Source of the DNA: Convolutriloba macropyga
Lineage: Eukaryota
Direction: 5' to 3'
Length of the DNA stretch: 64,000 nt
Assembly (NCBI RefSeq): GCF_964194025.1
Contig: NC_134472.1
Coordinates: forward strand, 14,942,001-15,006,000
Under the pieces are notes generated by a model, which was not told where the DNA came from, did no database searches, and was given only the letters and a program-made list of their open reading frames with translations. The translations under genes were made by a program, and so were the position numbers. Of the stretch, positions 28,933-61,503 are shown piece after piece (within the stretch, counting starts at the first letter, position 1; the number at the start of each line of letters is the position of its first letter).

Positions 28933-29970
28933 AAAAAAAACATAGCAGCGCAAGTCCTGACGTACAATTCAAAAAATTTTCATTGACTAAACAGAAAAAG
29001 TTGACCTAGAATTGACTATGAGTGCATTGAGAAAAACATTTTAAAAAAATCAGATAAAAAGAATAAGAAAGAAAAACAGAAAATCAACGTCAAAAAGCCG
29101 CATGTGAACAAAGAAACCACTAGCGAGATATGAAAATTTAATTCAAACAAAAAACTAGGCCTAGAGTGTGCTGTGAATGGATTGGCAAAACCATTTAGAA
29201 GAAAATCTGATCCAAAAAATTGAAAAAACAGTAAAAAATCAGAGTGAAATTGCCGCATGTGAACAAAAAACCACTACCAAGAAACTGAATTTTTGTTCAA
29301 ACACCGTTTTCTCACTCTACTTTAAAATAAAAGCGAAAAAATTAACGCCGCAAAACCACTCGCTTTTTCGCTCCATTTCCTGTTTCGGCGTGACCAAAAT
29401 CACTACACCAATTTGACTTCAAAAATCATTAAAATGTGTAAACAGATCTTAAAAAAAACATAGCAGGACAAGTCCTGACGTACAATTCAAAGAATTTTCA
29501 TTGACTAAACAGAAAAACTAGACCTAGAATGGACTATGAGTGAATTGAGAAAACCCTTTTAAAAAAATCAGAAGCAAATTAAGAAAAAAAACAAAAAAAC
29601 TAAGTCAAAATGCCGCATGTGAACAAAAGAACCACTAGCGAGAAATGAAAATTTAATTCAAACAAAAAACTAGTCCTAGAATGGGCTGTGAATGGATTGG
29701 GAAAAACATTTAGAAAAAAATCCGATCCAAAAAAATTGAAAAAACAGTAAAAATCAGAGTGAAATTGCTGCATGTGAACAAAAAACCACTACCGAGAAAC
29801 CGAAGTTTTGTTCAAACACCATTTTCGCACTCTACTTTAAATTTAGAGCGAAAAAAATTCACGCCACAAAACCACTCTCTTCGCTCCATTTCCTGTTTCG
29901 GCGTGACCAAAATCACTACTTCAATTTGACTTCAAAAATCATGAAATTGTGTGAATAGATCTTAAACAAA
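28933..29970. repeat. Tandem duplication, about 518-bp unit x2
   Basis: catagcag..caagtcctgacgtacaattcaa at 28941 and 29459. The units align throughout. Each contains two gc(c)gcatgtgaacaaa..accacta subrepeats. Confidence 0.9.
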
Positions 29971-31388
29971 AAAGACAGCGCCCCAATACAATTCAAATTC
30001 TTTGAATTTTAAAAAAAGACAGCGCCCCAATACATTTCAAATTCTTTGAATTGTAAAAATTCTTTGAATTGTAATAAACATGACTTCCTGGTTTCTTTGA
30101 TTTCATATTTGAATCATGTTAAGAAGTCAAACAGTTTTTCGTAAAATTTCGCGATGGGAGAAATTGAGCATCTGTGAACAAATTTTGTTGATTTCATAGC
30201 CAAAAGTAAGCACACGAATGCGAGTTTAAAACTTAGAATGGTTTCGTTTGTAAGCCATTGCAATAACTGCTTACGATGATTCCAATCGGATAGTTGAAAA
30301 AATACTAATTATATATATTGAAACGGTTCCAAAAAGTTGAGTTCATAATATATGATGATGCAATATATTTTCTCTCAGATCTCAAGACGTATGCATTCAA
30401 TTTTTCATTGTCTTACCTCTTCAAATCTTCCTTCTGAAGTTATGACAAAAGAAAACTTAAATTATAGAGGGAAAAACGAGTTTCGAGTCGGATGAACAGC
30501 AAAACATTCAGTTAGACCAAAATGATATAAAGGTGGTGCTATAAAGGTGGAGTATTAAAACTGCAGTGAAAACACAGTAAAACTAAGGATTCATTTGTTG
30601 ATTCAGAACTTTTGGGTGACAATTGGAAACTTTACACAAAACGCGAAAAGTCTCTTTTTCACCATTGTTTCGAATCAGATGCTTCATAGTGGATGAAAAA
30701 CTTTACTTGGTTAGAAAACGTGCCCAAAACATTCTGTGTGCATTCTGCCGTTCAAAAAACATGAACAGCAGAATGCATATGCTCTTTTTTTATTAGAATG
30801 CCTTTTAGCTTCTCAAACTTCAAAGGCAGCTCTTCGGAGAACTACAAGAGGCATATGTCGAGAGCAAATGAAGTTTCCCAGGTCGAGGTGTCCAGACCGA
30901 ATTGAGCTCTGATCAGACTATCTTCGAGCGCACACATAATCTCGGTGCGTTTGAATTACATGGTCTGGAAAAGGCTTCGAGCCCACTTTTGTCTCGTCAA
31001 TGGTATGGAACTTGGCTGATCACAGGCAGTTTCAGGCACACACTATTCTGATCAGAGGCCGATTCAAGCGCACACTTGTCTGATCATTGGCCAAGTCGAA
31101 CAACATTGAAAGTCTGATGGGGTTAACCAGAACCAAACCGTCCAGCTGATAGCAACTGCCGGTCCCCTTATAAAAAGATTTGGAATTACTGTAGATAACG
31201 ACGTTTTTATGCAAAGCTATGTAAGTTAATCTATTCAGCTAAAAAACACGAATTAATGGTTTTGCTCAATACTTTTTACAGCACTTGGGCTTTCTTTTCA
31301 TAAGCAATTCTTTTAGAATGGGCTTTTCGTACTTTGAATATATGGTTGGAAACACCAATTTTCATGAAAAGAACATATTATAGTTATA

Positions 31389-34300
31389 TAATAATAATAA
31401 TAATAATAATATTGAATTCAACCAAACATGGTTACAACCAGCTTGGTAGTCCCCAGATTAGGGGAGAAATCAAGTTTCAATAATTAAATTTTCTCGAAAA
31501 CTTTCCATCCTGAAGGGTAACTTTTATAATTGAATCTTTTCAATGCCTCCCCTTCCAAAAAGTTCTTCAATTCTCTTCGAAACTGACATGGATTTTTGTG
31601 TGGTGAATAGTTAGCGAAACTGTTAAGTTGAGACAAAGAATTATTGAATCGGACTACTCTATTAAAGTAATTATTTTCAGAACGTTTCCGAAATGTTTTT
31701 CTCGCTTCAATAAAAATCTTTTCGCTTGATCTGGTCTTTGGACAACCGAAAGTTATTGACCAGTGGACTGACGCATTCATCGAAGTTAAGCCCAATAAAA
31801 TCTTGTTAAGCAGAATTAGGTCGTTAAGAATTAGAAAATAACTGACTGGCAATAGGCGATTTCGAATTAGGCTCTCAACGTATTCTTTGTCACCCAGAAC
31901 AGAACGGCAAGTTATCCATTTTAAACATGATCTCTGCAGTCTTTCCAAGCGTTGAAGATACTGTGGTCCTGGGTTCCAGACATTTGACGCATAAAAGACC
32001 GCAGAGAATATATATGTTTTCACCAACGTGCATTTGACAGTTTCTTTTGTGGTGCGGGGTATAACTCTTCTTAAATGATTCAGTTTTTGAAAACCTTTCT
32101 TTACCGCCATTTCGAGGTGACAATTCCAAGTCATGCTGGCCGTGAAAATTAATCCGAGATCTTTAATTTGTTTTTCATTTTTGATGGCAATTCCTTTTGC
32201 AAATAACTCTGTAGACGAATTATATGTATTTTTGTATGAGAACTCGAGAATGCTGAATTTGTCAAAATTGAAATTTAGTTTGTTTGAACCAGACCATTCG
32301 ATAGCTCTATTTATATCAAACTGAAGTTCTTCACGTTCTGAAATCTGTCCTATTATTTTCGTATCATCGGCATAAAGGAATGTTTTATTATTAAGTTGAT
32401 CAGGTAGGTCGTTTATGTACACGGAGAACAAAAACACAGCAAATATTGATCCCTGGGGACCCCCGCTTGAGATTTTTGAGAAAGTCGAGTAACTGTCTGC
32501 AATTTTTACTCTCTGCTGCCGATCAACCAGATAGGAAGCAAAAAATTTCAAAAACTTTTCATCAAACCCAAAACGAGCGAGCTTTTGAAGCACAATGTAA
32601 AAATTAATCGTATCAAAAGCTTTCGCAATGTCCAAGTAAACTGTTATCGGGGTTGAATTTTCGTCTAAAGCTTGACATAAGTTATCACAATATAGTAACA
32701 ATTGGGTAACTGTTGAATGTTTTTGCCGAAAACCATGTTGAGCAGTGCAAAGCTTCCTTTCGAATGTCTTCTTAATTTGTTTGTACACTATTCTTTCAAA
32801 AACTATAGAAATTGCACAGAGCATTGCAATCGGTCTGTAGTTTTTAATTTCCATTTTGCTACCATTTTTGTGATGAGGACGCACGTGTGTGTTTTTCCAG
32901 ACTTTGGGAAATTGGCAAGCGTTAATAATGCAGCTAAATATATACAAGATACTATTTATAACGTACGGCGCAGAAGCTTTAAGGAGTGATGGTGTTATTT
33001 GATCAAAAGAGTTGGCACCACATTTAGTTTGTGATATTTCATCTAGCACATCTTTTGCGTTGAATGTGATATCGTCTAGAAAGATCTCTGGTTGAGCTGT
33101 TTCAGGCACAACAATGTCAGAATTATCTTCGATAAATACTGAAGAAAAATGCTCGTTGAAACTTTCCGCAATTTGCTGAGAACCCATTATATCTTGGCCT
33201 CGGTATTTCATTTTCTCGGGGAAAGTTTGTTCTTGGTTTAGTCTTCGCAAAAATTTGTATGCATCATTGTTTGTTGAAATACAGAAACCCTCAATAAAAT
33301 ATTGTTTGTCCTTAAGCAAGGATAAATTTAACTCCATCTCTAAACTTCTAATTTCCTCTGCTCTTTTGTTTGTTTTCCTTAGCGTCTTCAGCTTGTTTTC
33401 TATGTGTACACTATGGGAAGACATATACGATGGTGCGTCAAGCCGGCGTTTTGTTATACGAGGTATTGACTTTTCACAAGCATTGTAGAAACTCTGATAA
33501 AAGCAATGTAGCAAGTCATTGGGAGATCTGTTTGACATAGTGGGGATTTCAAAATGAGAGATGAATAAGTGCCAATCAGCCTTGTTGATGTTGAGTTTCT
33601 GGAAGAGAGGCTTTTGTTCTTTTCTTGTGAGTCTGACAGAAATTTCTGCTATGAACAATTTGTGATCTGAGAAGGAATTAGCCTCAACCACGAGATTACA
33701 TTGCTCCAGATTATTGCATAAAAAGATGTCGGGACAACAGCTGGAGTTGAGGATTGAGCAAAGGTTCAGAGCATCTATTTCTTTCATGAAATCTTTTTCA
33801 TATTCATTACTACTAGAAAGTGTATTCCAGTCAGCATGTGAAAAATTAATATCACCATTCATAATTATCAGTTTTTTCTGAGTACTGGAGTCAAAAAGCG
33901 ACTTCAATTTAAATAATGCTATACTTATTGAACTTCGTAAATCTGTATCAGAAACCCGGTATTTGCTGTTTTGTGGAGGGTTATACAAGGTGATGATTAT
34001 TAATACAATGTCGTTCAGAAAATAAACAGAACATGACAAAAAATCAAAGTTTGTTTCAATTTCTGCTGCTTTATTGAAACAAAGATTTGTTTTGTGAGCT
34101 ATAAGAGTACCACCGTGAGTTCCAACTTTTCTATCTTTTCTGGACTGCACGAAATATTGCCGATTTAGGAAAATTTCTGAATTTCTTACTTCATCTGTAA
34201 GCCATGTTTCAGTTAAGCAAAGTATGTCAATATCATGTTCCCTTAGTAAAATATCGAGATTCATTCTGCGATCAATTGTTAAAATTGACCGGCAGTTCAA

Positions 34301-34440
34301 TAAACCTATCTTCAGTACTTGTTTTTCCTCTAGTCATGATCGTGAATTTGTTTGATGGCCTATCTTCTGACATGTCTCTTCTACTGAGAGAGTTATGTCT
34401 ACGAGCTGGTTTATGAGAGATATGTTTATGTTCAAAATCG
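31389..34440 (-). mobile_element. 5'-truncated non-LTR retrotransposon (CR1/L2 group)
   Basis: APE + RT ORF, short 3' UTR with a CCCC-taatct-GGGG hairpin, and an (ATT)n tail at 31389-31411. The last codons of a probable ORF1 lie at 34337-34440. Confidence 0.92.
31484..34333 (-). CDS. LINE ORF2: AP endonuclease + reverse transcriptase (uninterrupted)
   Basis: NCRS, LTETWL, YNPP, GDIN, SDH (APE); NYRPI, QHGF, LDIAKAFD, PQGS, YADD (RT). The frame is open from the stop at 34334-34336. Confidence 0.95.
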   Translation of the reverse strand, partial: LEEKQVLKIGLLNCRSILTIDRRMNLDILLREHDIDILCLTETWLTDEVRNSEIFLNRQYFVQSRKDRKVGTHGGTLIAHKTNLCFNKAAEIETNFDFLSCSVYFLNDIVLIIITLYNPPQNSKYRVSDTDLRSSISIALFKLKSLFDSSTQKKLIIMNGDINFSHADWNTLSSSNEYEKDFMKEIDALNLCSILNSSCCPDIFLCNNLEQCNLVVEANSFSDHKLFIAEISVRLTRKEQKPLFQKLNINKADWHLFISHFEIPTMSNRSPNDLLHCFYQSFYNACEKSIPRITKRRLDAPSYMSSHSVHIENKLKTLRKTNKRAEEIRSLEMELNLSLLKDKQYFIEGFCISTNNDAYKFLRRLNQEQTFPEKMKYRGQDIMGSQQIAESFNEHFSSVFIEDNSDIVVPETAQPEIFLDDITFNAKDVLDEISQTKCGANSFDQITPSLLKASAPYVINSILYIFSCIINACQFPKVWKNTHVRPHHKNGSKMEIKNYRPIAMLCAISIVFERIVYKQIKKTFERKLCTAQHGFRQKHSTVTQLLLYCDNLCQALDENSTPITVYLDIAKAFDTINFYIVLQKLARFGFDEKFLKFFASYLVDRQQRVKIADSYSTFSKISSGGPQGSIFAVFLFSVYINDLPDQLNNKTFLYADDTKIIGQISEREELQFDINRAIEWSGSNKLNFNFDKFSILEFSYKNTYNSSTELFAKGIAIKNEKQIKDLGLIFTASMTWNCHLEMAVKKGFQKLNHLRRVIPRTTKETVKCTLVKTYIFSAVFYASNVWNPGPQYLQRLERLQRSCLKWITCRSVLGDKEYVESLIRNRLLPVSYFLILNDLILLNKILLGLTSMNASVHWSITFGCPKTRSSEKIFIEARKTFRKRSENNYFNRVVRFNNSLSQLNSFANYSPHKNPCQFRRELKNFLEGEALKRFNYKSYPSGWKVFEKI

Positions 34441-37400
34441 TTCTCTGATCAGACTATTTGGAACGCACTTTAGTCTACCAAAAGGCAACTTCGAGCGCAC
34501 TTTAGTACAATCAGAGGCGATATCGAGCGCACATTAGTCTGATCATAGGCAATTTCAAGCGCACTTCAATCTGATCAGAGGCAGGCAATCTCGAGTTCAC
34601 TTCTTTCTGATCAGTGGCGGATTCCAGCGCACACTAGTCTGATCAGGGATGGTGAGTTGGTGACTTTTGAGCGCACAATAGTCTCATAGAGGACAATTTA
34701 GTCTGTCGGTTGGTCAGATCAGAGGTCGCTTTTGTCTGATACGGTCTAATCAGAGGCCATTTTGGTCCGGACCTCAACCTGGGTTAGGTTGACTCTGCTT
34801 GAAGTCACTGAGAACTTCTGGTGGTTATCGAGAACCGTATAACGGTACAAGATCTTAGGTCACAACTTCAAAGTGACGTCTGAACAATCAAGTAAGGCAA
34901 CTTGCTCGTCAAAGAAAGTCAATTTTTGCCGCAAGTCAATGAAAGTCAATTTCTGGGTATGCATTTTAAAACGTGCATATGCCTGTTTTAACTACCTTTT
35001 CAAAGGAATTTTTAATTGAAAAGAACAAAAAAAAGTTGTTTCAGCTATGCAACTATATTTCACTCCGAGTTTCGATTAATTTCAAAAACATTCGGCTATT
35101 GTCTTGCTCAACCTGGGTGAAATCGGGAGTTGGGAGGAGAAAGAGTCATACCCGCATTTCCATAAGTCGGCCACTGCGCTATTCTTTCTAGATAGTAAGC
35201 AATCGCCGTGATTTTGAGATCAAGAATCAGCCCTGCGCGAGCTTCAATACAGTCCACTAAAAATGGTAAGTTCATCATTTGGGATATCATAAAACTCACC
35301 AAAATATAAACATAAGAACCTAAAAAAAATTAATGTTTAATGTTTTTCGTTGTGCAGTGACCTCAGTTCGATTAGACTTTGTTATCGAATCAATTAGAGT
35401 GAAATTCTAATCTAGCGCAGTATAATTCTTTAAAAATCTCTTCGAGATTCCGCATTATCTCGCCCATTGAGATTTTAATAGTTGTTAATCAGCAGTTAAT
35501 TTTTCTACCAGCAATTAATTATCCGAGCAGTCACTTTTTCATTAAGTTTTTTTTCAAATCAACATCAGTAATATATTAAAATCTTTTGCGGAAATCTACA
35601 TTCTACCGGTACCAAATTTTTTATTAAATTTACTCGTTTTTATTGCCAGATTTCACTTTTCCCATGTTAATACATTGTGCGTGTGAAACATACTTTCAAA
35701 CTTTGTGAACGAAAAGCGGTTCCTTATATGAAAATTCTTGTCAGTGTTTTTCACTTCTAAACTGGAATTTGAAAAAAGAAAATTGTTTTCCACCGCAAAA
35801 TATGTTTGACTGAAGCTCGTTGCGCAAAAAGTTTTGCCACCGAATAATTGCAGTACATTCCCTCATTTTAAAGTTGTTAAAACATACCATCGAAACATTG
35901 AGCGGCAAAAGTATTACAAGGATTACAATTTTGTGAAATGCACCTGCAGACGAACTTAAGCAAAAGCGCAACCCATAGTCTTTAGAATTAGTGTCAATTT
36001 TTTGCCAGTAGATGCTCGTAATGAAAACCTTGCAAAATTCAACCGATGAGCTGAATGGTCACAATTAACGTATGCTATACCACCATTTTGTTCAGTCAGC
36101 TCAAGCAAAAATGTGTGATTCTGTCTCTAGAAATTGTAAGCGCTTGACTTGGTCGATAAAAACAAGTATGGCACATTTCGCACATTTTTTTACGAGTATA
36201 GAGATTTATTTATTGCATCAAAAAATATCGTTTCAAACATGATCAGTGGTTTTCGCAACAATTTTTATCATTTCGAAGTTCTAGTGAAAGAAAAGGCAAA
36301 ATACCATCATTTTGGCAATAAGGTTTTTACTCAACATGTTTTCTTGGCCTTTATAAGAGCGTTAGACGTCCTTTTTAGATGCAAATTATCGGCATGTCGC
36401 AGCTTGGAATTTTTATTTAAGAAATTGTTGCTCACCATTCAGCAACTATTTTCTGATTGAGGGATTCCTTTCATGATCTCACTCACTGGGTCAACATCTT
36501 TTTTAAAATTTTAGCGACATTTTTTATTTAATTATGTTTTAATAGGTTCTGAAAAATTTATATAGATAGATGAGCTAGGAATAAAAGGAGCATAAAGTTT
36601 CATACTGTCTCACCAAAAGTTGTTTTAATTGTATTAAATAGGATGTTAGCCACAATTAGAAATATTTTTAAAAATATGCTTTATGTCAAATTTTCAGCTA
36701 TTTGTTACAGATTTGGTTAGCAATAAAATTTGGGTGAAGAAAAAAACGCAGTTAGAGTGGAATGTAAAAGATGCATTTAATTTTACGTAAATTTTACCAC
36801 TTTTGCTGGCCAATAAGTTAAATTCTTTAACCATAATGTAGTAGATTTTATCTCTGAGGATAAACAATTGTTAATGAACTCTTTGATCCAAATCTTGAGC
36901 TAAAATTTTTGCAAAAACTATTTAAATTTCATTTTTTTTCATCAAAAATGTCACGAAATAATCTTATTTAGTCCACTTCGTTTAAATTTGCCATATTAAC
37001 ACACCTAAAAGCTACTGAAAAAAAAAATTAACCCGCGATAATTATCCAAAAGGAATCATTTATTTCTGATATATGGATTTTTTTTGTCAAATATTTTAAA
37101 CCCATTACAATTACGTATTCCGAAAAGAGACCTATCTTCCGGAAGATTTTTAAGGAAAACTATCAAGTTTTTCAGAAGCTTACGACCTTTATGACTTTTA
37201 AAGAACAAAAAAATATTTGATTTCAAACTAAACATGGGATTATTGAGCCTGTTGATTTTTTCTTTTTTTTTATTAGCTTGTGGCTTTAGATTATTAGAAT
37301 GGGCTATTAAAAATATTTTAAAATGAATTAAAATTTCAAAAAATTAACATTACTTTTAACTTTGCACTTTGCTATTCTTTTTTTGTCTGCTTCATGCCTA

Positions 37401-43146: not shown

Positions 43147-46100
43147 ATGATCTCCTCAAATTCGCAGACACAATACTCAGACGACAACACCGAAAGTCAC
43201 GAGCAGGTCTCTGAAGATCCCCATTTAAAACGTCTGACCAACTTAAAGTCGATGTAAGAAAGTGAAAGCGAGTCTTGCATCGAATTTATTACATCCGGCA
43301 TTGACTGCGGCGAGGAATCAGAAACAGTCGAGGAAACTCTCCTTGAAATCAAGGAACTTCAGGAGAAAAACGAATTTACAATTCAAGAACTTTTAGACAA
43401 AGCACCATCATCCGATGCAGAAACTCTATGCTCTCGTATGAGCAAACTCAAATTCAAGATACGGAAGACTACTTCGGCATACCGAAAATACAAAAAGGAG
43501 CTTTTGTCCGCACCACAAAGCAACCAAACAAATAACATCCCGAGGGTGACCTTTGACAACAGCAGTTATCAAACCCATACTGACGCATCCCTAACGACCA
43601 ATATTATCTCAGCACCCGCTGAATACAGTTCTCACAGTGAATCCTTCCCTAACAACGCTGCACCCAGTAGCTTAATGGGAGATTCAAACACAATTTTGCT
43701 GCCGGCGAATTTGTCGCAAAAACTCACCACCACATCTGCTGACGTATCAGACACCAGCACCCTCAACAATGCCTTGTCTGTAGTTACCTTTGTTGGCTTC
43801 AATTCCTCTTCCGCAAAAATCGACGGCACATTTCCCTCATACCATGTTTCTCATCAGGCGGCCCAAACTTCCTCTTTGAATCCGCCAATCAGAACTTCGC
43901 AACCATCCTTTACACTTTCAACAGTTGGTATTGTGCCACAGACTCCTACCTCAATGTCTTCTTGTTTTCAGAAATCGGTTCCAAAGTTACAAGCAACAAA
44001 ATTTGATGGAGATCCATTAGGTTGCTTAAAATGGTTCAGTGTGTTTCAAGCAACAATTGATCGTTCTCCAATGTCCTCTGCAGAAAAAAAATGATTCATC
44101 TGCCATCGCTTCTTATTGGAGAAGCAAAAGCACTGGTTGACGGCTATGGCTGCAATGGCAGTCTGTACGCACCCGCTTTAGCACGTCTGGAAGAACATTT
44201 TGGTAATCCGAACAGGATTGTCAATGCCTTCCTCGAAAAACTGTCACATTTTAGACCCTCTAACCAATCCCAGACAGTTATACGCAGTTCTCTGCTCTCC
44301 TTTTAACCCTTGTGGACACATTTCAGCAGCTTAGATTCACACATGACATACATTTCACTACAAATGTCAATCAAGCCTTAAACAAGCTTCCAACACCAGT
44401 CCGCTTGGAATGGATTAAGCACGTTTTGGAAAAAAGTTTACTTCAACCGTCTCTGAAAGAGCTTTCGGAGTGGCTTCTAATCTATGCAAAGGCTTGCAGA
44501 GATCTACCCACCTCTTGTGCATCAGCTCAACCTCCAAGCACTCATTCAAAGGCCTCTAACAACCTTTAGGAGCAATCGAAACAGCAAAACCAATTCAATC
44601 GTCCGTCCAACAGATCACACCAGGATCAACGCACAAACCCGTCAATTAGCTTTCAACCAAGCTCTGCAAAAGGTGTCGTTTGTCCAAACAACGGTAGCCG
44701 TCAGTATTTATAGAAAATGTTCTCATTTCCAAGATCTTTCTCCACTCGATAGACGAGAACACGTGAAAAAATTGAAACTATGTTTCAACTGTTTTGGTAG
44801 TCACCATGTATAACAATGCACATCAAAAAATGTTTGTCGCTCTGCAGACTGCAGCAGAAAGCACCACACAATTCTCCATAAAAGCTTCATTGCAAACAAT
44901 CAAGCAATACGACCCTCTTCAACAGTTAAATCGGTTTAACTGCATGGCACAGGTCAAGTTGCTTTCTTACCAGTTCAACTGTCTAACGGGGAGAAAACGT
45001 TTGAGACATATGCTTATCTCGACAACGGAAGTTGCCAGAGCCTCCTCCTCCAATCCGCAGCTCTGATTCTAGGTAATTATATGAACACTTTTGGCAAGAT
45101 GCCTATTAGTGGCTACCACACAACAAAAGAAATAGATTGTTCTCCAGTGTCTTTAAAAATTAAACCTTATTAGTCTAATAATAGACCAATCCTTGTAAAC
45201 GAAGTCTTAGCAGTACCCAATTTTAATATGAAACTTGTTAACACTAATGAGCTGAACAAGCTTTGCAAGAAATTTGAACATCTCAATCACATTTCGTTCC
45301 CTAATGTTGAAGAAAATAAAGTCTCAATAATCATCGACATCGACAACCTGGAACTGATCCATTACAGTCAGGTAATTAAAGGCCCAAAAAACACGCCCTG
45401 CGCTGTAGAAACTCCTCTAGGATGGACATGTGCAGGTAAAACTAGCTTCACACCAGACGAACAGAATCCAGTGTTCAAAGCACAAATCAACTCTAATCCT
45501 CATCTAGACAATGAACTTTTCACAAAAGAACAACAGTGGATGAAAATTGAGAACTACGGTATAGCTTCATCAAAAAGGGCTATGTCTAAAAATGATGAAA
45601 AGGCTCTGCAAATACTTGAGTTGACAACAAATTTTTCTGATGGTTACTGCGAAATCGGCCTTCTTTGGAAGGAAAACGCCAAGTTACCAAAAAACAGAAG
45701 GCTAGCAGAAAAACAGTTAAAGCAATTTAACAAAAAGCTCTCAACAAATCCAGATCTACAAAGTAAGTACGAGGGGACGCTCCAGAAAGATCTTTGAAAT
45801 GGTTTTGATGTCAAAGTTGATCCAGCTACAGATAAAGAAACAGCATGTTCTTATCTTCCTCGTCATCCCGTTTCAACTGAAAACAAACCCGGAAAAATCA
45901 GGAGAGTCAGCAATGCATCCAGCGTTTTTCAAGGTCAATCCTTAAATTCGAACCTTTTGAAGGGACTCGATTTAATGAGTAATTTTGTGGGAGTCATATT
46001 AAGATTCCGCGAGCAACAAGTGGCAATTTCAGCAGACATTGAGCAAATGTTTATGCAAATTAAAGTTGCTCCCTCTGATCGTTTGTTTCCTTGGTTTCTC

Positions 46101-48783
46101 TGGAACCACAATGACAAAATCGAAGAGTATGAATACACACGTCATATCTTCGGCGCAACATCTTCCCCATGCATAGCGTCCTACGCTCTTCGTCGTTCAG
46201 CACGTGACAATCAGGACAAATTTCCTCAAGTGTTACACGTCATTGAGCGTAATGTCTACATGGATGACCTATATATCTCGACAGCAAACGTTGAAAGTGC
46301 TTTAAATGTTATGAACAGCACCAAAGAGTGACTTTCACCTGGTGGTTTCAACATCACAAATTGGAAATTTAATTCAGACGAGTTCTTGAAAAACGTCGCA
46401 AACGAAAACCTTTTGAAGCCTGATCTACCATCAAATCAACCTCAAAAAGTTTTGGGTTTACCGTGGAACGCGAGCACTGAGGAGTACATCATTGACAAAA
46501 GGCTTTTCCAAAGGTCCCCCAATGATCAATTGACAACAAAGAGAAAACTTTTGAAGTTCGTCGCTTCAATTTTTGATCCACTTGGCATTATAGCCCCTTT
46601 AACAATCAGAGTGAGGAAATTATTGCAAGCGGCTTGGAATAAAGGTCCACAATGGGACGCAACTCTGGACGTTCCGCAGTTCCCAGACTTTCTCCAATTC
46701 AAAAACGAATTTCCATCTGAAAAGAATATCAGCATTCCACGTGCTCTCTTCCGTAGAAACACAAAAATTCAGTCAACTGCTCTTTACATGTTCACAGACG
46801 CTTCAGAGTACGCTCTATCAGCCGTGTCTAATCTAAGAACTGAGTACGTTGATAAAACAGTTGATGTAGTGTTCATGATGTGTAAAGTCAGAGTAGCTCC
46901 GATCAAGAGGATGACTATTCCAAACCTGGAGTTGCAAGCGCCAGTGTTTTGCGCGCAATTAGCTCAGTTTATCAAAGAAGAGCAAGATTTGGAAATCGGA
47001 AATTACTTTTTCTGGTCCTATGGTACAACTGTACTCCATTGGTTGAGAACTCACGAAATGCGGCATCAAATTTTCGTTGACAATAGACTAGCAAAGATTC
47101 TCGACGTCTCATCACCTCTCAATGGGCGCTGCATCGCTTCTTCTGATAATCCCGTTGATGACGGCTCAAGAGGCTATGAGGTTCGACAGATGAATGCAAC
47201 TTCTCGTTGGTTGAGTGGACCATCATTTCTCCGCTCCGAAGAGAAAGAGTGGCCTTGTCAAGATCTCTTGAGGCATCACCCACATGAAGCTTCATGCACA
47301 GTACTCTCAATACAGCCACTGGAAGCCCTTAAACGGTCAACTGAAGGGTGTGTAATAGATATTACACGTTTTAGCAACTGGAGTCGGTTGATAAGAGTGA
47401 CTGCGTACTGCTTCTTTTTCCGCGACCTTTGCAAGAAGCGAAGCACACATTTGGCCCACTCTCATCATACTTTTGCGTACAGGTATCTGATCCAGGTATC
47501 ACATATTGAAAACAGACGAAATATCTGCTCTGTGTAAAGGAAAGGAAATTTCAGCATCAAATCGTTTGAAAGACCTTTGTCCGTATGTTGACAATAATGA
47601 TCAGCTCTGCGCCAAAGGTCGGTTGTCCAAGGCAATGGTTTTAGAGACTGCCCGACACCCATTCATTCTGGATGGTCTAATCCCAATTGTGAAGCTGCTC
47701 ATCAAGAATTTTCACATTACTAACACTCACTCAGGAGTTGAACAAACACGCTGCCTCCTTATGCAATACTATTGGATTTTGAAATGCCGAGCTGTCGTTA
47801 GGCAGACAGTCCGCCAATGCATTCCTTGTCGGCGAATGATACAGGAAATCCAGCAACTTCAAATGTCTGATCTACCATGCCAGCGGTTACAAGTGAGCAC
47901 CACTTTGTCTTTGCAACGACAGGACTCGACTTCATAGGTCCTTTCACCGTATCTCAATGCGGCAGACACGCTACACGCTGCGTACTTCTGTTCACCTGCT
48001 TGGTGGTAAGAGCATTTTACTTGGAGATAGCAGAAAACCTGTCTACAGACTCAACAATGAATTGCATACGCATATTCTTTAGTCGCCGCGGAAAGCCAAA
48101 AAAATTTCTTTCCGACAACGGGAAATCTCTTGTCAGCTCTTGTTTGGAACTAAAGAAAGGTATCGAAGCACTCAGAGCAACAAAGGAATTTGCCTCAAAA
48201 CTCTATATTCTTAATATTGAAATTGAATGGGAGTTTAATCCTCCTCTTGCACCACATTTTGGCCGCAGTTGGGAAAGGTCAATTCAAGTGTTCAAATTGT
48301 TTTTGTACAAGGTCATTGGATCAAGAACACTAACACATGAAACGTTGTCTACCTCTACTTGCGAAATTGAATTTAACATGAACTCTCGTCCCCTCGCATA
48401 CACTTCGAGTGACATTAATGATCCACTTCCCCTAACACCAAACCATTTTCTTTTGGGCAGACCCACTGTTAATCTTCCACCTGGTGTTTTTTCCGAGAGA
48501 AAGATTACAATCTCAAAGTCTTGGAGAACTTCATAACACTTCGCCGAACACTTCTGGAACAGATTTCTTAGAGAATATATCCCAAACCAGCAGAAACTTT
48601 CGAAAAGTAGACGATCTTGTTTGGGTTTTAGAGGATTTCACGCCTCGAGGTCTTTGGCCGCTGGCCAAAGTCATTGAAGTACATCCTGGTTCGGACCAAA
48701 TTGTCAGATCCGTTAAAGTAAAAATCGCATTTGGGGAAAAAGTTCGCACTGTTATTAAATTAAGCAAAGTTCTAGCTGACTAA
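43147..48783 (+). pseudogene. BEL/Pao gag-pol polyprotein, many frameshifts and stops
   Basis: KFDGDPL (gag), CFNCFGSHH..C..C..HHTILH knuckles, YLDNGS protease, YMDDL RT, FTDAS RNase H, GLDFIGP/SDNG/WERS integrase, and the RGLWPLAKV C-terminal domain. Confidence 0.93.
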
Positions 48784-53168: not shown

Positions 53169-54059
53169 TTAATTTCTGTCCTCCTTATACCTGCGTCCTG
53201 CATCCACCTGGGCCTTTTGCATCGCCCCTCCTATCAAGATATTACTGCGATCACGGGTCACCCATCCGTTATTGTCGAGGTAGTCCTCCACGGGAACAGT
53301 GCCTGCGTCTATATAGTGTTGGAGAATGTTTTCATATGATAAGTTTGATGACTTTGGTATTGTACTATTATTACTTAGTAATGTGTTTGGCTTTCTTCCA
53401 AAATAAGCTTGGAAAGGTGTTAAATTTGTTGTCTTTTGTTTGCATATACGTAATTGATATACTATTGACTTTATTGCTTCTTTAATTGTGAATGTGTTAT
53501 TTCTATTATCTAATTTCATGCAGCCTAAACGTCTTTTAATTGTTTGTATCAAACGCTCTACTAATCCAATAGCTCTAAGGTCATTAGCAGGGGCAGTGAT
53601 TATGTTAATACTATTTTGTTTACAGAATTTCTTGACGTTATATCCAATTAAACAACGTGCTTGATCTAACCTAATGTTTCGGGGAACACAGTGTATTTGA
53701 ATATATTCATCTAAAAATTTAATTACATTAGGTCCATTAGCTTTATCAAAGACTTCTACAGTAGGGTATTTGGAAAAACGGTCAATACATGCGAGAAAAT
53801 GTATATCTTGGTCGTTTTCATTCGTAATAGGGCCGCCGAAATCAATTTGTGTTTCTTCATTAGGCTCTGAACAATTTAATAAAGACTTCCATTTCGACGC
53901 CGGAACGACTGGTTTGAGGTTTTTACCAATATCAGTACAAGGCTTCCACTGGGCAGCCTTGGTAAGGATCTCGCGGTGCATGTACGGCCAGAACGCATAC
54001 TGTCCAAGGGTAAAAATACCCCAGCTGCCGGGATCAGTGAGTTGAAGACTCTCTAGCAC
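53169..54059 (-). pseudogene. Gypsy integrase core
   Basis: D-D-E residues in QIDFGGP / RLDQAR / GLVER. Confidence 0.9.
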
Positions 54060-55243
54060 AGCGTCCTGGATTCAGTGTGATAATGCCACACGTTCGTCTA
54101 CGCAGACGCAGCCGGACCGAACATGTAGGTCTCTCCAATTAGAGAAGAGGTAGGGGTTCACCTCCTTGCATCGTTGAGCGTCATTTTCGAGGATACAGTC
54201 TTGCACCTCTTTGAGTATTGCATCCTTGCTTGTGAGGACAGCCAGAAACCCTTCGGTGAATAACTGTGTCACGTTATTCCCGAACACCTCTTCTTTGGAT
54301 AGTTCAAGATTGGGCAAATTCTGGCCTTCATTGGAGGAGTGAGTGGAATTCACTGCGGAATTTGGTGTAGATTGAAAAATGACCCTGCTGTAGGTAGATG
54401 GAGTTTGGGGAATTGACCTCGGGTTAGTCATATTTTCTTGAGAAATTGAGTGTATTTATGATATGTTTGTTTTATTAGAATTATGTTGCATTTGAGTTGA
54501 GTTATTGTGTATGTTAGAATTTAAGTGGAATTGAGCTGCCTTTGCAGAATTATCAAGAAGCAACTGAGTTGTGTTACGATTTATGGCAGAAAGCAAATTG
54601 GAATAGTTTGTTGAGTGGGGGTGTGAGGTACGTGTGGAATGTGTGTGATTGACGCTGCTAAAGTGCTGTGATTGGCAGTTTTGCTGTGTGGTATTTACAT
54701 AAATTGCTGCAATAGCGTCACAAATGCGGGTAATTGCTGCCACCGCAAATTCCTCATCATATTTGTTTGTAACTTTTGCTTCTTGATTTGGTTGGCGGGA
54801 AATGTAATCTACCAGCTCCATTTTTGCGCCTGGTATATGTCCAATATTAAAATTAAAGGTTAACAGACGATCTACCCAACGGGTTAAACGACTATTACAT
54901 GATTTGTTAGATCGGTGTTCTTTCATAATAGAAAGTAGTGCTCGATGATCCGTAATGATTGTGAATGATTTGCCAAATAAAAAACGTTTAAATTATTCTA
55001 CGGACCACAAAACCCTAAAAATTCTAATTCATTAATGCTGTAACGTTCCTCATTTGAATTCAGGAAACCAGACGCAAATGCAACCGTATGCCAACTCGTG
55101 GTGAACGTTGTTCTAAGGCTGCTTCTAATCCTGCTCTGGATGCATCGCATTTGATCCGTGTTTCCAAGTGTGGATTATAATGTGTGTTTTCTGTTGCCTT
55201 TGCAACTTTATTTTTAATTGATTGGAAGTGAGTTTCAAGTTCA

Positions 55244-55962
55244 TCATTCCAGAAAGAATTTTGTATTCTTTGTAAGCAATGGACGAAGTGGATGACATAA
55301 TTGAGATAAGTTAAGGATGAATTCGCCTGGGTGATGAACTGAACCTAGAAATGAGCGTAAATGCTTTAGATTTTTAGGTGCTGATAAATTTAAAATTGCT
55401 GCTGTTTTAGATTCAAGTGGTGCGATTAATGACCTAATGACGTAAAATTTTGACCTAACCATTCTATTTTGGTTCTAGTGAAATGACATTTAAGTAAATT
55501 TATTCTCAGATTATCGTCGTCCAATTTTTTTAAACATTTGTAGACTAACTTTAATTGATCTCCTTTAGAGCCTCTACTGACTATAATAATATCATCTAAG
55601 AAACAGTGAGTGTTACTTAGTCCAACTATTGTGTAGTCCATCACTTTTTGTAAAGCTGCTGGCATGTCAGTTAATCCATAGAATCCCGTAATGAAGCGAT
55701 TTGTACCAGTGCCTTCGACGCTAATAATATTGAAGTTGCAATATCTAGCCGTTTCCGGGTCTAATATAATTTGGCTGTATGAGTACTTCAAATCCAGTGT
55801 TGAAAAATATGCTGTATCCTGTGACGCATTTGTTTTTAAATTTTGTTGAATTGTGTCAATTAAGTTGTCTATATTCGGCATTTGATGATTATTTTTATGG
55901 ATAGATTTATATAAGATTTTTGAATCTAAGGCTAGTTTAACTGTTTTGTCTCTTTTAACCAT
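55244..55962 (-). pseudogene. Gypsy reverse transcriptase
   Basis: VKLALDSK, FSTLDLKYSYSQ, GFYGL, CFLDDII, KCHF, LRSFLG. Confidence 0.9.
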
Positions 55963-56555
55963 GATAACTCTAGGTGAGATGAAATTTTAATCTGAACAAC
56001 TATATAATTTAATGATGTGTTTTTCTGCAAGTAATTTTTTAAGTTCGTCATCAACCAAAGGTTGTAATTTAACTGGAACTCTGCGTCCGTTTTGGTGTTT
56101 AGGTGTAAAGTTTTTATGAAACGTAGATTTAACTGAGTGTTTTAATTATTTACCGATTCTTGAGATAAGGCCTGGAAAATCAAACGCTATCTGTTTCTTG
56201 ATTAAGAATTGGTTTTGATTGACATTTGCAACTTGTTTTATCTGGGTGAGTGAAAAGCCAAGTTTTGGGAAGAGATCTCGCCAAATTATGGGTCTGTTGC
56301 CATCTTCCACTACTGTCACATTAACACCCTTAGCTACCCAATAGTTACAATTGATTGATGTTTTGATCACTCAAATTGTTTTGATTAGATATCACTAAAA
56401 CTTTTGTCTTGGTACTCCCGATGCAAATGTCTAAATTCATTGGCTCCAATTCTCTATTGTCATTATTAATGGAAATTGTAGTGACACAGTTGTCATCATA
56501 GTCATCATAGTCCGAATCGTAATTAGCATCATAGATGCTATTTTTTTGGAGCAAT

Positions 56556-57653
56556 CTATTCAATATGGTTAACTTGCTCTCCAACTGTTGCTGAAGTACG
56601 CACCGTGGCTGCCTCGGAAACAGATTTATCGACATTGTTTACTCTGGGTTTCGGCTTATATGGGTGTTTCGGTTTTCTGCAGACTTTTGCGAAATGGTTA
56701 GCAATACCGCAGTTTTGCAATTTTTTCCACGGGCAGGACAGTTTTGTCGATGAGCAGCGGACCACCCATAGCCACAGTTTGGACAAATTGTAGGTTTCAC
56801 GAATTGGTTTGTTGGAGGTCGCGATCTATTCCAAGATCCTTGTATGTTATTTACAGATGTAGTTGTGATCTCAATGGTTGTCGAATGAATGGTGATTCCA
56901 GATATCCTTAACTGGTTCTGTATGCCCGTCTCAATATTCATGGCAACTTCTAATGCCCTTTTAGCCGTTCTTGTCTCCTTCAGCAGGTCCCTCTGGATTT
57001 CGCCGTCATGCATATTGTCTATGAAAACGTCACGAATGATTGGTTCTTCATGACTTCCTAAGTCGCAGTTAGAAGACAATTCCCGGAGACAACCGTAGAA
57101 CTTTTCATCAGGTTCTCCTTTCAATTGTATCCTGGTTAGAAAGGTATATCGACCGAAAGTGATATTTCTTTGTTTAGTAAATACCTGTAAATCCCACAGA
57201 TCCTTTGTTGTAACACGATCAATCTGGATATTTGGGTCTGAGGAACCAAATATTCGTCGTCCTTCCATCCCCAGGCTGAGATTAGTCAAAGAGACAGCTT
57301 TGTTGTCGCAAAGCTTCCAATGTTTATCGCAGCTTAATATACCTGCAAGTTTTATTTTCTGACAACGATTCAACCACGCATTTTTGAGTTACTCGTTCCT
57401 AGTTTTTCGATCTCTTTCGCCCTGAGACGTACTGTTCTTGACATTATCCTTGTATATAGGCTCGGAAGGGAAGGTGACTTTGTCTGGGGGTATCTTCTCC
57501 TAGGGTGTCGATCGATATACTTTCTTTTGCCGAGATAGCCAATTTCAGCAATATCTGCCAGTGATCCCATCTTAAGGGTGGTTCTAGAGTTGGTTTCTCC
57601 CAAAAGGTTTCGATTCCAAGGAGTGAACGTTCTTTGACTACTGACTGCGCCAT
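56556..57653 (-). pseudogene. Gypsy gag (frameshifted)
   Basis: MAQSVVKERSLLGIETFWEKP..., LRELSSNCDLG..IIRDVFI, and zinc knuckles. Confidence 0.85.
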
Positions 57654-59884: not shown

Positions 59885-60605
59885 GGAATTCGTGCTCATT
59901 CCTCGCAACATGTTTATAACTGAACAACCTCAACTGAACAACCCCGCAAATATTAAACAATCCACTAACAAAAAACAAGTCGAAACAACTATCGCTTCTA
60001 CAGAGAACTTCAAAACCAAAAGCCACTAGAAGCGGCCATACAGCAGAACACAGAGCTACAGACAGATGACGTCATGGTTTCCGATGAAGAAGAAAAGCAA
60101 CAAAGTATCCCAGACGACACTAAACGAAAAGAGTTTGATGAAATCAGTCAGAGTGTGATCGATGACATAGATTTTCTCGAAAAAAACAAAAGCAAAAATA
60201 ATTTTGAAGAAACTCAACGGATCACGCAACATTTCACTGGACTTTGAAGGTAAAATCCTGATTAATGGAAGGAACACCGACATTCCAGCATCAACTTTCC
60301 TCTACGCATTACAACAAACATCATCAAAACTTTTGCCTGACGATTATCAAGTATTGAATTATTTGAACCTTGCGCCACATCTCACTTGTAATACTTACGC
60401 AAAGAAGTTCATAAAAATTCCGAAAGAGCAAAAACTACGTCAGTTTCCAGATGGAGCAGCCAGTGAACAGAAACCTGCTATCGAGAGAGCAGAAAAAACA
60501 GAGACTGCCAGCTTTGATGAGGAAGGCTTCGCAGACGCAGAAGAAGAAATTAAAACTCCAACAAGCTGGAAAACTCCATTCAGCGGAAATCAAAAAACTA
60601 ATTAA
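59874..60605 (+). pseudogene. Polinton hypothetical protein (disrupted)
   Basis: Starts MPTEEFVLIPR overlapping the previous stop and continues in the 60204-60605 frame with an acidic C-terminus. Confidence 0.45.
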
Positions 60606-61503
60606 AGTTTACACGAAAGGAAAAGCAGCATTTGGAAGTGTTGCTAACATAAAAGAGGAAAGCGGCTTTTCCCACAAAAAAATTGAAAAATTCCTTCAAT
60701 CGAAGAACTCATACACTAAATATCGTCAATTCCGGAAAAATTTTCCACGATTGAAGGTAGTTGCTTACAGAATAAACGAAATCTGGTCTATGGATGTAGC
60801 CTATATGGACAAAATAGCCAAGCACAACAATGGGGTCAAATACCTATTGATTGCAGTTGACGTTTTATCACGCTATTTACGTGTTCAACCTCTCAGAACG
60901 ATGTATTCGAAGGATTGCGTTGAAGCCCTCAAACAAATGATAAAGACGAAACAACCAGAGAAAGTGTGGACAGACAAAGGCACCGAATTCAAGGGCGAGT
61001 TAAAAACATTTTGTGAAAACAAAAAGATTCATTTGTATACAACCGAAAACGAAACCAAATCTGCGTTTGCGGAAAGAAATATTCGATCACTTAAAAACAT
61101 TATTTACAGATACTTGGAAGAAAAATGGACTTGGAACTATATAAAGGAGCTTCCCAATTTCGTAAATATCATTAACAGTCGTGTTAACCGCGTTACAAAG
61201 TTAGCCCCAAATAAAGTATTCAAAAAACATGAACCATTTTTAATTTCGATTGTTTTGGACAACAATAAATATAAACCACGATTTGAAGAGAGGGACCTGG
61301 TACGAATAGCGAAACCAGACGACACCTTCAGAAAAGATTATACTCAGAATTATACAGACGAAGTTTTCACAGTACTAAGATTGGCTACAACAAGTCCACC
61401 TACCTACAATCTGATTGACATAAACAACGTTAAAATCCTTGGGATGTTTTACGAACCGGAATTAGTACAAGTTGATGCGTTAAACACTGGAGAGGAGCAT
61501 TGA
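60575..61503 (+). CDS. Polinton retroviral-like (rve) integrase; start uncertain
   Basis: WSMDV, VDVLSRY, WTDKGTEF and AERNIRSLK (DDE), plus the C-terminal DLVRI..FRK.Y..NYTDEVF..FYEPEL. The frame is uninterrupted. Confidence 0.92.

Follow-up and report, generated by a model that had tools for sequence, protein, structure and literature searches.

The LINE copy and its junction

How is the second open reading frame (ORF2) of a LINE retrotransposon translated when no ATG precedes its first catalytic motif and a single in-frame stop codon separates it from an open frame upstream? This question is raised by a LINE copy on the minus strand of the window, by which we mean the whole stretch of 64,000 nucleotides of Convolutriloba macropyga DNA that was analysed (contig NC_134472.1, positions 14,942,001 to 15,006,000). 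An earlier note on this DNA had described a TGA at 34336-34334, CTAG next to it, 949 open codons thereafter and no ATG ahead of the N-C-R-S motif of the endonuclease, and all of these observations hold: the earliest in-frame ATG is codon 24 of ORF2 (34264), the motif lies earlier, at codon 13 (34297), and the near-cognate codons CTG and TTG stand at codons 7 and 12, respectively. The features of the locus, in window coordinates, are the following.

30870..31389, minus strand: downstream half of a repeat of about 1 kb, interrupted by the LINE
31390..34412, minus strand: LINE copy, putatively of the CR1 group, 5'-truncated; other copies part from the window sequence upstream of 34412
31390..31483, minus strand: short 3' UTR, folding into two predicted hairpins, with an (ATT)n tail (from sequence and fold)
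31484..34333, minus strand: ORF2 of 949 codons, encoding an AP endonuclease and a reverse transcriptase (Pfam RVT_1, E 2.4e-25; Exo_endo_phos_2, E 6.2e-6)
34272..34373, minus strand: 33-codon ATG-started ORF in another frame, with a second ATG overlapping the TGA; likely incidental
34330..34336, minus strand: junction TGA-CTA-G, the ORF1 stop in frame with ORF2 and predicted readthrough site, with a conserved TGA-CTA core
34337..34411, minus strand: final 25 codons of ORF1, encoding a polar linker and the end of the C-terminal domain; contiguous in full-length copies with the rest of the 306-aa ORF1
34413..34790, minus strand: upstream half of the same repeat of about 1 kb, with 32-bp subrepeats; not LINE sequence

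The frame upstream of the TGA had been described as open for more than 30 codons. It is indeed open for 39, bounded by a TAG at 34456, but only the last 25 belong to the LINE; the other 14, including the stretch ILNINISLI, derive from the different repeat into which the LINE inserted, and whose upstream half is continuous with the start of its downstream half in 13 of 14 other copies. (By eye, this repeat has apparent terminal inverted repeats and is MITE-like, with 2138 first-look candidates in the genome.) Of 25 other scored copies, 13 have their start about 1273 nt upstream of the Asn codon of the endonuclease motif, as against 115 nt in the window copy. A single-ORF element starting at 34412 was considered and ruled out. 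Since only 25 codons of ORF1 remain, the window copy is unable to make an ORF1-ORF2 fusion itself and would not be a source of one.

Elsewhere in the window we noted tandemly repeated units of about 515 bp (29000-30100) and, by eye, broken frames resembling LTR retrotransposon and integrase genes at 43258-48536 (plus strand), 53169-57388 (minus strand) and 60415-61503 (plus strand).

Copies of the window family

Searching the 1.18-Gb genome at the DNA level, with 40 of 478 candidates scored, yielded 30 loci of the window family, counting the window copy itself and a pair of local duplicates. The junction stop is TGA in 28 of them, which rules out a private nonsense mutation, and the full heptamer TGACTAG is present in 27, the three departures being one AGA, one TAA and one TGA-CCA. 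The spacing from the junction to the Asn codon is 39 nt in 29/30 copies. Full-length members of about 4.2 kb contain a 306-aa ORF1 in frame with ORF2 across a single TGA, the same frame being open for at least 321 codons upstream; the possibility raised earlier that ORF1 lies in a different frame is thereby answered in the negative. Given this conservation and the length of the open upstream frame, the TGA at the junction is not there by chance. The ATGA that overlaps the junction is found in 27/30 copies of this family but in only 5/24 representatives of the families described below, and the 33-codon overlapping ORF is likely incidental; a +1 frameshift out of it was ruled out because the overlap is not conserved across families.

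The proteins are those expected of a LINE with a type IIC ORF1. A PHD finger was detected in ORF1 at E 1.7e-5 (locus L069) and 0.0026 (L034), an ORF1 profile weakly matches the L1 ORF1p structure 2YKO (E 0.0055), and the domain order predicted in an AlphaFold model, a PHD finger with an L1-like coiled coil, RRM and C-terminal domain, fits this type. The only Pfam families matched by ORF2 are RVT_1 and two of endonucleases, RNase H being absent, and no protease is detected; the endonuclease profile matches L1 endonuclease structures. As the element also has a 3' stem-loop, a short tandem-repeat tail and frequent 5' truncation, all features of the CR1 group, we infer that it belongs there, and the clade labels used here (CR1, L2 or Crack) are inferred in the same way.

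Divergent families in the same genome

Protein and Pfam searches of the genome gave 210 loci with 182 scored junctions, which cluster at 75% identity into 37 groups, or 35 families once two fragment clusters are merged; 32 of the 210 loci have no scored junction, and in 19 of these TGACT(A/C) still lies nearby. One two-member family is represented by the motif-bearing L135 rather than by the indel-shifted L134. The alignment row L153 is a tandem endonuclease duplication, not an ORF1. In 24 of the 35 families, a fraction that is not a prevalence as the sample was drawn mostly with motif-bearing queries, the frame of the endonuclease is first interrupted upstream by a TGA, and the next codon is CTA (21 families) or CTC (3 families). 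Two further families, both single decayed copies, have a TGACTA shifted by an indel, and nine are without the motif.

The 24 motif families are highly divergent, with a median pairwise endonuclease identity of 35% (range 19-63%), and still the TGA-CT(A/C) is nearly always placed 9-16 codons before the N-x-R-S motif. Each of the six motif bases carries 1.5-2 bits of information across these families, and all 24 flanking positions carry less than 0.5. The codon after the TGA is CTA in 21/24 families versus 15.5% of the Leu codons in ORF2, from which it follows that the choice of CTA acts at the nucleotide level. The seventh base, in contrast, is free (A in 9, C in 6, G in 5 and T in 4 families); the conserved signal is therefore UGA-CUA rather than CUAG. 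Hence the UGA-CUAG context proposed earlier stands for the window family, and it is its first six bases that extend beyond it; the seventh G of the mammalian UGA-CUAG motif is not general. In 21/24 families no in-frame ATG lies ahead of the first catalytic motif, and the remaining three have a family-wide in-frame ATG between stop and Asn (at N-6 in 17/19 copies of one, at N-4 in 8/8 and 3/3 copies of the others).

Two other junctions were also seen. In the family of L098, L101 and L387-L402, which has no ATG, an ORF1 of up to 337 codons is in frame across TAG-TCT-TCA, 19 codons before the Asn, a context that matches no readthrough motif recognised here. The single copy L422 (G000:C2:65161100-65163800) has 352 open in-frame codons leading to TAA-GTG, and one base further on a TGACTC that is out of frame. 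In addition, loci L085 and L086 are single-ORF LINEs with a 2A-like DVEKNPGP and zinc fingers before the endonuclease, i.e. of the StopGo type (PMC3894237).

On these grounds of sequence conservation, UGA-CUA is a real and deeply conserved recoding signal that splits an ORF1 and an ORF2 lying in the same frame, and ORF2 is very probably produced by programmed readthrough, as a rare fusion. The claim of an ORF1-ORF2 fusion with which the earlier note closed is in this respect strongly supported for the family, but not for the truncated copy from which it was drawn.

A different signal in one family of a sister lineage

As a control, 40 loci of a sister lineage were analysed, of which 32 had scored junctions, in 14 clusters, and 8 were left unscored. 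An in-frame TGA-CT(A/C) occurs in none of the 14 clusters, and ORF1 mostly lies in another frame, ORF2 has its own ATG, or both. One family of this lineage, L415 (G000:C3:81070000-81072700; copies L427-L444), combines an ORF1 of 319 codons, in the frame of ORF2, with the absence of an ATG ahead of the endonuclease motif, and its junction reads TAG-CAA-TTA in 14/18 copies that span the site and TAG-CAR-YYA in 16/18. By its letters, this is the type I readthrough motif, UAG-CAR-YYA, just as UGA-CUA is the type II motif (PMC3159437). Finding another known signal at this site in a different lineage supports readthrough, because readthrough predicts it and re-initiation does not. A loose genome-wide pattern for junctions of the UAG-CAR-YYA kind returned noise, with 2277 matches versus 2663 in the control.

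Contigs from outside this genome

Outside this genome, loci were collected with a pattern that ignores frame and asks for TGACTA ahead of two endonuclease motifs, and the sample is consequently pre-selected for TGACTA and gives no prevalence. The pattern matched at least 119 metagenome loci, 41 from genome bins of prokaryotes and 1 from a viral collection. A qualifying endonuclease hit was obtained for 75 of these 161 listed loci and not for the other 86; the TGACTA is in frame in 48 of the 75, out of frame in 21 and broken in 5, and 1 has another stop. A single-protein search found no relative among 153 pattern stretches of metagenome contigs. Four of the TGA-CTA LINE contigs, L336, L360, L368 and L340, are from prokaryote bins, three of them in one Candidatus Poribacteria bacterium record, and these are likely host contamination.

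Grouped into families, the listed matches comprise 36 in-frame versus 17 out-of-frame ones (p 2.8e-7 against one third, a value that treats related families as independent and, given their shared ancestry, overstates that independence). By hand count these families come from 22 assembly prefixes, and their endonucleases have a best identity of 28-48% to those of this genome. Again among the matches listed, at least 50 open upstream codons are found in 31/36 in-frame versus 0/17 out-of-frame families, and an in-frame ATG before the Asn in 5/36 versus 12/17; the seventh base is G in 12/36 in-frame families. The arrangement seen at the window thus recurs in 24 families of this genome and in 36 listed outside families, so that one six-base signal is common to some 60 divergent families. 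A shared local 3' RNA structure at the junction gave no general signal (mean z -0.06 over 60 families, +0.6 over 24), and the values for the window family alone, -2.2 and -1.7, are within chance for 60 tests.

In a quick reverse transcriptase tree of 58 rows, built with no named reference elements, the motif appears in several lineages and the starred branches force at least three changes, which means either that the motif is old and has been lost several times or that it was gained repeatedly.

Alternative routes to ORF2

The most serious competitor of readthrough is termination at the UGA followed by re-initiation at a nearby AUG or near-cognate codon, with UGA-CUA being kept only because slow termination there aids the restart. 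Re-initiation is the accepted model for the LINEs studied, human L1 and SART1 (PMC2881922, PMC5972666), and it could make use of the CTG at codon 7 in the window family and of the in-frame ATG in the three families mentioned above, at N-6 in one. However, it needs no common frame, yet the frame is kept in all 24 families, and among the outside matches listed it is the in-frame families whose upstream frame is open. Moreover, 10/24 representatives have neither an ATG before the Asn nor a near-cognate codon up to four codons before it, the CTG of the window falls within the first predicted strand of the AlphaFold model, and the motif is absent from 14/14 clusters of the sister lineage, where ORF1 mostly lies in another frame and ORF2 has its own ATG. 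A stop-start of the SART1 type would fare no better, given that the ATG overlapping the stop, present in so few representatives, opens a short ORF in another frame and not ORF2. Taken together, we consider re-initiation an unlikely explanation.

Splicing could in principle remove the stop altogether, TGAC serving as the branch point and CTAG as the 3' splice site. TGAC does fit the branch-point consensus, yUnAy, and AG directly follows CT in the window family, but this AG is not conserved, the seventh base being G in 5/24 families only, and a branch point has no need of a reading frame. Spliced RNA would also return to the genome in the form of new copies, yet the junction is retained in 30/30. 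In the sequencing contigs of three runs we found no GT..AG joint across the junction, and the sole joint that does cross the site skips 344 nt and has AC..AA ends. We thus regard splicing as highly improbable.

Finally, UGA could be a sense codon, through a change of the host code or as selenocysteine, which would agree with a stop that is TGA in 24/24 motif families but is scarcely credible for several reasons: seven other families and the window have full-length ORF2s of 946-963 codons with zero internal TGA, 176 TGG codons were counted across 15 long ORF2s, and one full-length ORF2 terminates at TGA (the counts halt at the first stop, and it is the full-length ORF2s that carry this argument); a host code change would leave CTA unexplained; and neither a SECIS nor any other Rfam match was found at E up to 1 over 30800-34900.

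Proposed mechanism

According to the readthrough model, most ribosomes would terminate at the UGA and release ORF1p, and a few percent or less would insert an amino acid there and go on into ORF2, setting a high ratio of ORF1p to ORF2p like that of gag to gag-pol in retroviral readthrough. UGA-CUA alone gives 1.5% readthrough in a human-cell reporter (PMC4132726). Consistent with a type II site, where UGA precedes CUA or CGG, the UGA-CUA is in frame and its context is conserved beyond what the protein would need. The resulting fusion would stay uncleaved, as Pfam finds no protease, and it could join ORF1p oligomers via its coiled coil, whereby the endonuclease, the reverse transcriptase and the PHD finger would be brought to the element's own RNA.

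The structure prediction accords with such a fusion. We modelled ORF1, the stop and the endonuclease as one chain with AlphaFold, using a 31-row alignment and entering the TGA as Trp (mean pLDDT 86, pTM 0.49). The recoded residue falls within a low-confidence linker (residues 302-309, pLDDT below 50), five residues before the beginning of the endonuclease, whose first strand starts at 312. The last 15 residues of ORF1 are 63% polar versus 40% further upstream (32 families), as for a linker. The Asn of the N-x-R-S motif aligns with Asn14 of the L1 endonuclease, which we take to be an active-site residue, and the first ATG of the window lies 11 codons past that Asn; a start there would therefore cost the enzyme both its first strand and the Asn.

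Fusions joined by a sense codon were also sought. Among the longer proteins no intact one was seen, and none occurs among the best 150 of 8749 representatives of ORF1-like proteins, 149 of which have at most 463 aa; both are weak negatives. The one longer candidate, a 635-aa ORF1-like protein, was rejected, for it reads as a deletion product that is without the end of ORF1 and the start of the endonuclease.

If the readthrough model is true, any annotation that places the ORF2 start of such elements at a downstream ATG or TTG is wrong, ORF1 and its PHD finger are part of the active enzyme, and a host that controls termination would also control transposition. In a wider form, the model would make readthrough a main and long-standing route to ORF2 in LINEs of the CR1/L2 group, yielding an uncleaved Gag-Pol-like fusion that assembles with ORF1p oligomers and has cis-preference and PHD chromatin reading built in, with both viral signals, UGA-CUA and UAG-CAA-UUA, adopted by different lineages; to this wider form we would give about even chances.

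Comparison with known systems

How ORF2 is translated from bicistronic LINE RNA has been called an open question in a review (PMC3894237). The two well-known solutions are the UAAUG stop-start of SART1 and re-initiation across the 63-nt spacer of human L1 (PMC5972666, PMC3894237, PMC2881922). The present LINEs would share with both a bicistronic RNA, a dependence of ORF2 translation on that of ORF1 and a low output of ORF2. SART1 and L1, however, make a separate ORF2p; the present elements have no spacer, and the AUG that overlaps their ORF1 stop is neither in frame nor conserved. In protein architecture our elements resemble the CR1/L2 elements with a type IIC ORF1, which have a PHD finger, then an L1-like coiled coil, RRM and CTD, and an ORF2 with APE and RT (Metcalfe and Casane 2014, PMC4120745); in the main text of that account, where "stop codon" has 0 matches, a conserved in-frame stop is not mentioned.

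As for the signal, UGA-CUA gates a downstream polymerase frame in the same manner at the type II sites of alphaviruses (nsP3/nsP4) and of tobra-, furo- and pomoviruses (Firth et al. 2011, PMC3159437); those sites usually have a 3' structure, which was not detected here, and here the host of the signal is a LINE with no protease found. In OPRL1, OPRK1, MAPK10, AQP4 and MDH1 the first six bases, UGA-CUA, are likewise conserved and the local context is sufficient (Loughran et al. 2014, PMC4132726). The mammalian UGA-CUAG genes gain short tails, whereas here a whole enzyme of 950 aa would depend on readthrough, and the G is not conserved.

A structural protein and a polymerase in frame across one stop are also found in the gag-pol of gammaretroviruses (type III, PMC3159437) and in Candida Tca2 (PMC7175516). 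Unlike the present elements, these are LTR elements with protease processing, and gammaretroviruses use UAG with a pseudoknot. The gag-pol stop of Tca2 showed no readthrough in a reporter (PMC7175516), which cautions against equating an in-frame stop with readthrough.

In the full-text literature we found no description of UGA-CUA readthrough in CR1- or L2-type LINEs; Repbase Reports and most subscription journals, which lay outside this scope, may note it. The text excerpts of PMC11203168, PMC3708506, PMC5009743, PMC13517186 and PMC13343379 hold no mention of readthrough in LINEs. Within the literature searched, what we propose is a known mechanism in an element group from which no report of it was found, and the nearest precedent comes from Paramecium tetraurelia. 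There, in the 12 elements of non-LTR Group 3, ORF1 and ORF2 are in frame across one stop, as in the present LINEs, and read-through has been suggested for them on sequence evidence alone (Guerin et al. 2017, PMC5405496). Group 3 differs from our elements in being a ciliate-specific clade, and three of its 12 junctions read TGA-TTC, TGA-GTG and TGA-GTG, not UGA-CUA.
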